From Escherichia coli (GTDB lineage: Bacteria; Pseudomonadota; Gammaproteobacteria; Enterobacterales; Enterobacteriaceae): a stretch of 64,000 nucleotides of DNA. Below the pieces are notes generated by a model. The model did not search any database, was not told the origin of the DNA, and was given only the letters and a program-made list of their open reading frames with translations. The position numbers were made by a program, and so were the translations under genes. Shown one piece after another: positions 17,696 to 20,415 of this stretch. The stretch is from assembly GCF_003334355.1 (NCBI RefSeq), contig NZ_QOWP01000004.1. The stretch is one strand, 5' to 3'. Position 1 is the first letter of the stretch, and each line of letters starts with the position of its first letter.

Positions 17696-18358
17696 ATGTT
17701 GCGCATTATCGATACAGAAACCTGCGGTTTGCAGGGAGGGATCGTTGAGATTGCCTCTGTTGATGTCATTGACGGAAAAATCGTCAACCCCATGAGCCAC
17801 CTGGTGCGCCCCGATCGTCCTATTAGTCCACAAGCGATGGCGATTCATCGCATCACCGAAGCCATGGTCGCCGATAAACCGTGGATTGAAGATGTGATCC
17901 CACACTATTACGGCAGTGAATGGTATGTCGCGCACAACGCCAGCTTTGACCGCCGCGTACTGCCTGAGATGCCCGGTGAGTGGATTTGCACCATGAAACT
18001 GGCCCGTCGCTTGTGGCCAGGAATCAAGTACAGCAATATGGCGTTATATAAAACACGCAAGCTCAATGTACAGACGCCGCCGGGCCTGCATCATCACCGC
18101 GCGTTGTATGACTGTTATATCACCGCCGCGTTGCTTATCGATATTATGAACACCTCCGGCTGGACGGCAGAACAGATGGCCGATATCACCGGACGTCCGT
18201 CGTTGATGACGACCTTCACCTTTGGCAAATACCGTGGCAAAGCGGTTTCCGACGTTGCCGAACGCGATCCGGGCTATCTGCGCTGGTTATTTAATAACCT
18301 GGACAGCATGAGCCCGGAGCTGCGTTTAACACTGAAACATTATCTGGAAAATACTTAA
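17696..18358 (+). CDS. exoX: ExoX, exodeoxyribonuclease X (DnaQ-like 3-to-5 exonuclease)
   Basis: ATG at 17696 gives 220 aa starting [12 protein letters not shown] (Exo I motif D-x-E). Confidence 0.9.
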
Positions 18359-20415
18359 TCCGCAGGCGTAGCGGGTAATGTTCCCTGCGCCAGCGCGACC
18401 AGAAAAGCATATTCCATCGCTACGCCTTCGTACGATTTAAAGCGACCAGATTTACCGCCATGGCCTGAGTCCATGTCGGTACAGAGCAATAAAAGATGGT
18501 CATCGGTTTTCAGCTCGCGCAATTTAGCGACCCATTTTGCCGGTTCCCAATATTGCACCTGAGAATCGTGCAAACCGGTCGTTACCAGTAAATGCGGATA
18601 AGCCTGTGCGGTGACGTTGTCATACGGGCTGTAGCTTTTCATGTACTCGTAATATTGCGGATCCTGCGGGTTACCCCACTCTTCAAACTCACCAGTGGTA
18701 AGAGGAATTGATTCATCAAGCATCGTTGTTACAACATCAACAAACGGTACCTGGGCGATAACGCCGTGGAATAATTCCGGGCGTTGATTAATTGCAACGC
18801 CCATCAACATGCCCCCCGCACTCCCGCCCATCGCATAACAAAGCGAAGGAGAGCCATAGCCCAGTTTTAACAATGCATCGCAGGCATCAAGATAATCATT
18901 AAACGTATTTTTCTTCTTCAGAAATTTTCCGTCTTCGTACCATTGTTGCCCCAGCTCACCACCGCCGCGAACATGGACAATGGCGTAGACAAAGCCACGA
19001 TCTAACAAACTCAAGCGGCTAAAACTGAAATCGGCATCAATACTTGCGCCGTAAGAACCATAGCCATACACCAGCAACGGGTTGTGTCCTTTGCGAAAAT
19101 GTTTGCGATGGTAGACCAACGAAACCGGAACTTCGACGCCATCACGGGCGACTATCCACAGGTGTTCACTGCGGTAATTCGCCGCATCAAAACCGGGCAC
19201 TTCTGTTTGTTTTAATACACGACGCTCACCGGTATCCATATCCAGTTCAAACAAAGTGTCTGGTGTGGTCATGGAAGAATAACCATAACGCAATCGCGCG
19301 GTTTCAGGTTCTGGATTGTAGGCAATCCAGGTCACATAGGCTGGATCATCAAAGGCAATACCAATGACTTCCCGGGTCTTGCGGTTAATTTGGCGCAAAC
19401 TGGTTAACCCGCGCTGACGCTCTTCAACCACCAGCCAGTCGGTAAACAGCGTAAACCCTTCCAGCATGATGTTTTCGCGTGGCGGAATTAACTCTTCCCA
19501 CTGTTGCTCATCACGCATACGGGTACGGTATAAGCCAAAGTTTTTGCCGTGGCGGTTGGAACGCAGATAAAAACGATGCTGGTAGTGATCAAGGCTGTAT
19601 TCGTGATCTTTGCGGCGCGGCAGAAAAACAAACGGCTCGGCATCGGCCATTTCCGCGTCCAGCAGGCGAACTTCACTGGTGGTGGCGCTGGCCAAATGAA
19701 TAACTACATAGTGCTTCGAGGTCGTTTTATGCAGGCTGACGTAATAGGTATCGTCTTTTTCTTCGTAAATCAGTTTATCTTGCGATGCTGGCGTACCGAT
19801 GGCGTGACGCCAGACCTGATAAGGCAGCAGCGTCACCGGATGCTTGCGAACATAGTAGAAAGTCCAGGAGTCATTTGCCCAGACAAAGCTGGGTTCAACG
19901 TTATCCAGCAGTTCCGGGTACCAGTTACCTGTTTCCAGATTACGAAAACGAATGCCGTACTGGCGTCGGGAAAGAAAATCTTCTGCCAGCGCCATGATGG
20001 TGTTATCGGGCGTAATCGCCATTCCGCCCATCGAATAAAACTCACTATGAGCTGCGCGCTTATTGGCATCGAGCAATGTTTCCCACTCATCCCACTCTTC
20101 ACTGAATGCCGATTGACGCTGGTAGATAGCATATTCACAGCCTGGTTCATAAATATGCCGATAGCGGTAGCCATTTTTGATGTAGGGCGCAGAAACTTCT
20201 CGTTGCGGAATGCGGTCGATGATTTCCTTTAAGATGCGATCCTGCAAGGCTTGTTGTGAGGCCATCACCCGATGACCGTAACTATTTTCTTGTTGCAGGT
20301 AGTCCAGGACTTCTGGCTGAGAACGCGTATCGTCCCGCAGCCAGTAGTAATTATCGATGCGCGTATCGCCATGAAGCGTCATGGCGTGGGGAATGCGGGC
20401 GGCTTTTGGTAGCAT
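18355..20415 (-). CDS. ptrB: PtrB, oligopeptidase B (protease II, S9 family)
   Basis: 686-aa ORF, ATG start; GGSAGG active-site serine motif. Confidence 0.93.

Follow-up and report, generated by a model that had tools for sequence, protein, structure and literature searches.

Bidirectional intrinsic terminators reportedly lie between convergent genes, as is said to have been described by Ju et al. in Nat Microbiol in 2019. [quoted passage not shown] In the same survey, an intrinsic terminator was predicted in only 20% of the E. coli genes with a convergent overlap. Any pyrimidine followed by TAA or TAG (YTAR) is a stop on both strands, so that a gene lying on the opposite strand in the matching frame must end there. 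For mRNAs terminated by Rho, a model has been proposed in which they are trimmed to a stable stem-loop that has no U tract and is followed by sequence richer in C than in G (Dar and Sorek, 2018; PMC6061677). Finally, 165 convergent excludons have been listed for strain MG1655, a pair being included if its two transcripts overlap in 50% or more of the 58 RNA-seq data sets used (Sanmartin et al., 2025; PMC12288877, Table 1).

The genes exoX and ptrB are found tail to tail in the window, by which we mean the whole stretch of 64,000 nucleotides of E. coli DNA that was analysed, and can be compared with each of these systems. We hold with good confidence that they form an ordinary 4-base overlap between two unrelated housekeeping genes, explained by neutral sharing of a stop and by Rho-dependent clean-up, with little regulatory effect. 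The exoX coding sequence (17696 to 18358, plus strand) encodes exodeoxyribonuclease X, of 220 amino acids, and ends in the stop TAA at 18356-18358; ptrB (18355 to 20415, minus strand) encodes oligopeptidase B, of 686 amino acids, and its stop is read, in complement, from the TTA at 18355-18357. Both features are defined by the open reading frame, by NCBIfam and by RefSeq; the annotated start of exoX is the ATG at 17696, where the mechanical list of open reading frames has a TTG at 17642 instead. ExoX scores 463 bits against NCBIfam NF005937 (cut-off 202) and oligopeptidase B 1602 bits against NF007511 (cut-off 1313); orthologues of the two genes were found in 80 species, and the pair consists of two authentic protein-coding genes, one per strand. 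Positions 18350-18361, read directly, are AATACTTAATCC, which puts the shared tetranucleotide TTAA, with both stop codons in its four bases, at 18355-18358 on both strands. The sequence-only reading had described two stops overlapping within a TTAA with no terminator between the genes: the first statement is borne out by the sequence, by the ends of the reading frames and by the RefSeq annotation, while the second is true only trivially, because there is no intergenic DNA in which a terminator could lie.

The same 4-base overlap is annotated by RefSeq in strains EC931, where the coordinates of exoX are identical, and MG1655, where exoX (b1844) occupies 1926120-1926782 and ptrB 1926779-1928839 (the offset from MG1655 to window coordinates, 1908424, was verified). 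In MG1655 the tetramer is TTAG and in the window TTAA (18358 A>G), and the junction is thus polymorphic within E. coli. Along a stretch of 1.5 kb around it, all 5,426 complete E. coli genomes match at 95% identity or more, several strains at 100%. The neighbouring gene yobB, annotated at 17016 to 17672 on the same strand as exoX and 23 nt upstream of it, is likely co-transcribed with exoX.

From a mechanistic perspective, the overlap owes its existence to the fact that YTAR reads as a stop in either direction. Conservation in PtrB ends with the core at ...AQGTLP(G/A), and from there a short variable tail runs to the first in-frame stop, which in this strain is made up, in complement, of the last base of the exoX Thr codon and the first two bases of the exoX TAA. 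Everything in this arrangement has a counterpart in the class of 4-bp convergent overlaps (PMC2174442): two real genes on opposite strands have their stops within one YTAR tetramer, a neutral origin by stop-codon mutation fits, and there is no predicted intrinsic terminator, as in most such E. coli genes. Nothing material sets exoX and ptrB apart from this class, being one of about 58 E. coli cases and already present in the reference annotation. The window itself tells the same story, since a gap of at most 1 base is seen at 3 of its 11 convergent junctions, as counted from the annotation of EC931, which is collinear with the window except for small indels and one IS1. Besides exoX/ptrB (18355-18358, gap -4), these are yebW/pphA (13886-13891, TAATTA, gap 0) and yebB/ruvC (38621-38627, TAA-C-TTA, gap +1). 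The overlap is real, already known, catalogued and not unusual; having been put forward as noteworthy, it turns out to be routine, already annotated and no more than chance would give.

The history of the junction was followed in one genome per species; of the 80 Enterobacteriaceae loci returned, 79 showed both gene ends. The gap between exoX and ptrB lies between -19 and +12 in 75 of these 79 species. The largest class, with a gap of -4, includes 34 species (TTAA in 27, CTAG in 3, CTAA in 3 and TTAG in 1) and is followed by 22 species with a gap of -19, 8 with a gap of 0, 8 with gaps from +2 to +12 and 3 with gaps of -10, -14 or -15. A YTAR is present at the exoX stop in all 34 junctions of the -4 class, whereas in all 22 of the -19 class the exoX stop is TGA or a purine precedes TAA or TAG; in these species ptrB is five codons longer, its stop being a TAG or TAA that lies antisense to the conserved His-Tyr-Leu (H-Y-L) codons of ExoX. 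The two classes represent one and the same reading-frame relation, and the context of the exoX stop predicts in every case which of them is found. The overlap touches only non-conserved tails, namely the few residues past LKHYL in ExoX and past AQGTLP in PtrB. In Salmonella enterica ExoX is 12 residues longer and a spacer of 34 nt separates the genes (gap +34), and in a Rahnella genome exoX does not adjoin ptrB; farther away, the gap is -4 in Erwinia sorbitola and +4 in a Pantoea strain. These comparisons of sequences fit a picture in which the tail-to-tail adjacency is old and the exact overlap drifts with stop-codon mutation, as the neutral model predicts. The junction stays tight from the Enterobacteriaceae to the Erwiniaceae, an observation that counts against the neutral reading insofar as selection might be responsible instead.

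How the two transcripts end was examined on both strands. A scan for strict consensus found no terminator-like site near the junction on either strand, the sole candidate on the minus strand being a 5-bp stem 620 nt away, and a relaxed scan for hairpins followed by a T tract, extended over 2 kb per strand, returned only weak stems or poor tails. Taken together, the strict and relaxed scans reveal no convincing canonical intrinsic terminator on either strand within about 1-2 kb, and at the junction no GC-rich stem-loop is followed directly by a U-rich tract, as would be expected of an intrinsic or bidirectional terminator. The pair thus resembles the genes with bidirectional intrinsic terminators of Ju et al. 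(2019) in being convergent and in having overlapping transcript ends, but differs from them in lacking a hairpin with an A tract on one side and a U tract on the other. In the published Term-seq data, covering three growth conditions, no 3' end falls within MG1655 1926400-1926999, possibly by reason of low expression (Adams et al., 2021); this gap extends from about 380 nt upstream to 215 nt downstream of the exoX/ptrB junction, so that nothing in these data points to termination at the stop codons. An Rfam scan of the whole window at gathering thresholds gave no match between 14.8 and 35.8 kb, and neither exoX nor ptrB is mentioned in the supplements of SMRT-Cappable-seq. Since there is neither a spacer nor a canonical intrinsic terminator, both transcripts would continue into the opposite gene as untranslated antisense RNA.

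On the exoX side, this continuation has been documented. A Rho termination region on the plus strand, classed as "antisense ptrB", has been reported at MG1655 1927253, corresponding to about 18829 in the window, at a distance of 471 nt downstream from the end of exoX (Adams et al., 2021; PMC7815308, Supplementary file 2). Reads upstream and downstream of it number 82 and 12 in untreated cells and 140 and 129 with bicyclomycin (Rho score 6.30, p 3.4e-10); such regions are defined with windows of 800 nt and are coarse, the true release sites being imprecise. In the RNA continuing from exoX, antisense to ptrB, a C-rich and G-poor, rut-like stretch extends from 18759 to 19058 (plus strand), with a C/G ratio of 1.4-1.9 in 100-nt windows vs about 0.8-1.3 in the preceding 400 nt. 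On this strand, no other stretch strongly rich in C and poor in G occurs within 800 nt downstream of exoX. The stretch was found independently from the sequence alone, and the published Rho region falls within it; a scan of the C:G ratio was therefore able to recover a published Rho termination region. The published bicyclomycin data show that exoX read-through is ended by Rho about 470 nt inside ptrB. It had been claimed earlier that each transcript must terminate inside the other gene, which holds structurally, since an mRNA has to include the stop codon of its gene and hence already covers part of the opposite gene, and which for exoX is documented by these read-through data.

A second Rho region, with a Rho score of 2.97, has been reported inside yobB, at about 17271 (MG1655 1925695, plus strand; Adams et al., 2021; PMC7815308, Supplementary file 2). 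The antisense RNA ended by Rho could in principle begin at an internal promoter and not with exoX, a promoter-like match of 9/12 being present at 18326-18355. As a source of plus-strand RNA, internal antisense promoters find no support, promoter-like matches numbering 2 vs 5.9 expected from shuffled sequences.

When compared with the Rho-dependent 3' ends already described (Dar and Sorek, 2018, PMC6061677; Adams et al., 2021, PMC7815308), exoX shares with them the downstream region sensitive to bicyclomycin and the stretch richer in C than in G, as well as, in relation to the protective stem-loops of Dar and Sorek, a stable stem-loop that lacks a U tract and lies just past its stop. It differs from them in that the site is within an opposing coding sequence and not in an intergenic 3' UTR, and in that some 400 nt separate the hairpin from the C-rich stretch, which in the model follows at once. 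In the sequence of events that we propose for this side, polymerase, probably on a yobB-exoX transcript, runs about 0.4-0.5 kb into ptrB in the antisense direction, meets the C-rich, G-poor stretch and, as the published bicyclomycin data show, is released there by Rho. Exonucleases would presumably then trim the exoX tail, possibly as far as the hairpin of -21 kcal/mol at 18359-18398.

On the strand of ptrB the picture is different in its details. No Rho region has been reported there by Adams et al. (2021), and the C:G scan finds no stretch richer in C than in G for about 1450 nt past the ptrB stop, the C/G ratio in this interval being at most 1.38. The first strongly C-rich stretch is at 16655 to 16854 (minus strand), antisense to holE, with a C/G ratio of up to 2.07, and a Term-seq 3' end classed as "antisense holE" (MG1655 1925232, minus strand, about 16808 in the window; Adams et al., 2021; PMC7815308) is located within it. 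As a guess, this stretch and the 3' end at about 16808 could be taken as a candidate for the end of ptrB read-through. In the proposed mechanism, the transcript of ptrB might accordingly reach this first rut-like stretch and published 3' end, about 1.5 kb downstream, although the link with ptrB is inferred.

The stem-loop just past the exoX stop gives rise to the alternative that survives best. From 18359 to 18398 (plus strand) the exoX transcript can form a GC-rich stem-loop directly past the stop and without a U tract, the DNA of which corresponds to the last 13 or so codons of ptrB. Its minimum free energy is -21.5 kcal/mol (z -2.64), and 2 of 200 shuffled sequences fold equally well; it is possible that it stops 3' exonucleases. 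According to this alternative, the element has been selected for a dual use, encoding the C-terminal tail of PtrB and at the same time forming the protective 3' stem-loop of a Rho-terminated exoX mRNA, a proposal that we regard as unlikely. The anatomy downstream of exoX does agree with the model of Dar and Sorek (2018), having a stem-loop without a U tract followed by sequence richer in C than in G and by Rho-dependent termination. Moreover, when 10 offsets were compared in 76 species, the most stable folding was that of the 50 nt immediately following the exoX stop (mean -16.2 kcal/mol, mean z -1.0), with z below -2 in 26% of the species at this offset vs 0-13% at the others, and in Salmonella a strong, non-homologous hairpin occupies the same place, within the spacer (z -3.0). 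However, RNAalifold gave no consensus structure for the 76 aligned junctions; the commonest helix was paired in 74.0% of cases vs 73.2% in shuffled alignments, and its covariation score of 0.116 was reached by 24 of 500 shuffles. The arms of the stem consist of the conserved and complementary PtrB codons for Gly-Leu-Ala and Leu-Pro-Gly, and the stability of the hairpin can thus be ascribed to these conserved palindromic codons, there being no consensus and no excess of covariation. Several Escherichia species fold weakly at this place (z from +1.0 to -1.7), and the Term-seq data of Adams et al. place no 3' end at the hairpin. A protective role is plausible but unsupported.

As for a demonstrably selected RNA structure at the junction, this candidate was rejected on account of the missing RNAalifold consensus, of a pairing close to that of shuffled alignments and of the weak covariation. 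A broader version of the same idea, in which the last 13 or so ptrB codons act as a protective stem-loop for exoX and, as a further possibility, weak Rho activity would allow exoX to be read through across ptrB and so lower the expression of ptrB, appears rather improbable to us. If it were true, the same DNA would specify the tail of a protein on one strand and, on the other, a structure stabilising the mRNA of the opposing gene.

The preferred reading, a neutral overlap with Rho-dependent clean-up, has also to be weighed against a regulatory one, since overlapping RNA-seq coverage has placed exoX-ptrB, by name, in the list of 165 convergent excludons for MG1655 (Sanmartin et al., 2025; PMC12288877, Table 1). 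That the two transcripts overlap in vivo is indicated both by this listing and by the plus-strand Rho region antisense to ptrB. Based on our reading of the method, the coverage-based call is probably near automatic once both genes are expressed, because their coding sequences overlap, and constitutes little independent evidence. Mutual exclusion by interference or RNase III, the property that defines the class, differs from the overlap in coverage in being only putative for exoX-ptrB.

A functional excludon would imply that polymerase collision or cleavage of RNA duplexes by RNase III makes the expression of ExoX and PtrB mutually exclusive, and that the tight junction has been selected; we judge this highly unlikely. 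Beyond the presence of the pair in the E. coli excludome (PMC12288877), it would agree with the lower single-cell co-expression and higher synteny of excludon pairs, which hold at the level of the class and are not specific to this locus, with the persistence of the tail-to-tail junction in 75 of 79 Enterobacteriaceae and in Erwinia, and with the roughly 10-fold increase in ptrB-antisense read-through (from 12 to 129 reads) under inhibition of Rho. Against it, the exact geometry drifts freely, from -19 to +12 and to +34 in Salmonella, as would not be expected if the overlap itself were under selection, and Rho normally confines the exoX antisense RNA to about 0.5 kb of the 2 kb of ptrB, that is, about a quarter of the gene. 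Read counts are also very low: near the site the plus strand has 82 reads vs 77,702 for tufB, per 800 nt and in the same data set, a value about 1000-fold lower, so that collisions between polymerases, encounters between complementary RNAs and the formation of duplexes should be rare. In the published excludon study, capture of double-stranded RNA with p19 could not validate convergent excludons. No locus-specific evidence for interference, or for a regulatory antisense 3' UTR, was found at exoX/ptrB, and a literature search on the regulation of ptrB returned nothing usable. To our knowledge, there is no functional link between the DNA exonuclease and the oligopeptidase. Both genes being weakly transcribed, the overlap probably has little regulatory effect and any interference is probably weak.

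Lower still in probability, and in our opinion very improbable indeed, is the proposal that ptrB has a weak intrinsic terminator of its own straddling the junction, by which its transcript would end a few bases past the stop and barely invade exoX. The stem-loop would be formed by the last 12 or so ptrB codons (18395-18361, minus strand) and followed by AUUAAGUAUUUUCC, with the U run located in the last codons of exoX. The hairpin has a free energy of -15.5 kcal/mol with 7 U within the next 12 nt, and the relaxed scan does report it, at a distance of -4 (-14.2 kcal/mol for the chosen stem, 4 T in the 8-nt tail window); in the 34-nt spacer of Salmonella, a strong hairpin is likewise followed, on the ptrB strand, by UUAUUGUGGUGUU. 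On the other hand, it is no more stable than shuffled sequence (z -0.47; equalled by 54 of 200 shuffles), contains large internal loops, is not picked up by the strict scan and is followed by a U run that begins, in a non-canonical manner, 7 nt past the stem; the empty Term-seq interval at MG1655 1926400-1926999, in three growth conditions, stands against this terminator as well. An annotation artefact as the source of the overlap was rejected, given that the ends of the reading frames are set by stop codons and that each protein matches its family over the full length.

Returning to the neutral overlap that we favour, the arrangement would best be read as genome compaction of a neutral kind. 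As a known and annotated arrangement, it matters little as a discovery. If the overlap coupled the expression of ExoX and PtrB, the pair would be one more validated excludon, and nothing here suggests such a coupling. What exoX and ptrB offer is a textbook example of convergent genes without a spacer in E. coli, in which a YTAR stop is shared, no intrinsic terminator is present and Rho clears the antisense tail.

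The junction at which exoX (17696-18358, plus strand) and ptrB (18355-20415, minus strand) converge is polymorphic within E. coli at position 18358, where the window carries TTAA, with TAA as the exoX stop, whereas the MG1655 reference carries TTAG, with TAG; in both forms the stops of exoX and ptrB are retained. A longer, 19-base overlap is found in a further class of the species-representative comparison (L010, L011, L013 and 19 further loci), in which the exoX stop is TGA or is preceded by a purine and ptrB is extended by five codons to a TAG or TAA lying antisense to the conserved His-Tyr-Leu codons of ExoX. 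In Salmonella enterica (locus L083, 4197-4236), the two genes are separated by a spacer of 34 nt containing a strong hairpin (on the exoX strand, a 76-nt fold of -31 kcal/mol with z -3.0), which on the ptrB strand is followed by UUAUUGUGGUGUU; here ExoX has 232 aa, 12 residues more.

Two other convergent junctions of the window have practically no spacer. The stops of yebW (plus strand, 13886-13888) and pphA (minus strand, 13889-13891) abut with zero spacer in TAATTA at 13886-13891, and this pair is likewise among the published convergent excludons, the MG1655 pairs with overlapping transcripts (PMC12288877). The third such junction is that of yebB (plus strand) and ruvC (minus strand), whose stops stand tail-to-tail, 1 base apart, in TAA-C-TTA at 38621-38627.

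Elsewhere in the window, an Rfam scan at the gathering score matched the SdsR/RyeA antisense sRNA pair (14676-14820), ES036 (46233-46275) and, on the minus strand, MicL (50211-50518) and naRNA4 (35847-35922), the last lying in a region (35794-36121) where, by BLAST, a segment of about 231 nt recurs at a distance of 97 nt with 91% identity. Near torZ, the adjoining NapC/NirT cytochrome gene is split by an IS1A insertion in strain EC931, and the window is without this insertion at 49564-49580.

Upstream of exoX, the annotated ATG start at 17696 lies 23 nt downstream of the yobB stop; a mechanically called exoX ORF begins farther upstream, with TTG at 17642, and its additional stretch (17642-17695) takes in the end of yobB. 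A Rho termination region has been reported within yobB (MG1655 1925695, window ~17271, plus strand, Rho score 2.97; Adams et al., 2021, PMC7815308), so that some of the transcription bound for exoX may end short of it. On the opposite strand, a published Term-seq 3' end antisense to holE (MG1655 1925232, window ~16808) falls within a C-rich, G-poor stretch (16655-16854) with a C/G ratio of up to 2.07. This antisense RNA, whose 3' end lies 1.5 kb beyond the stop of ptrB, could be ptrB read-through.
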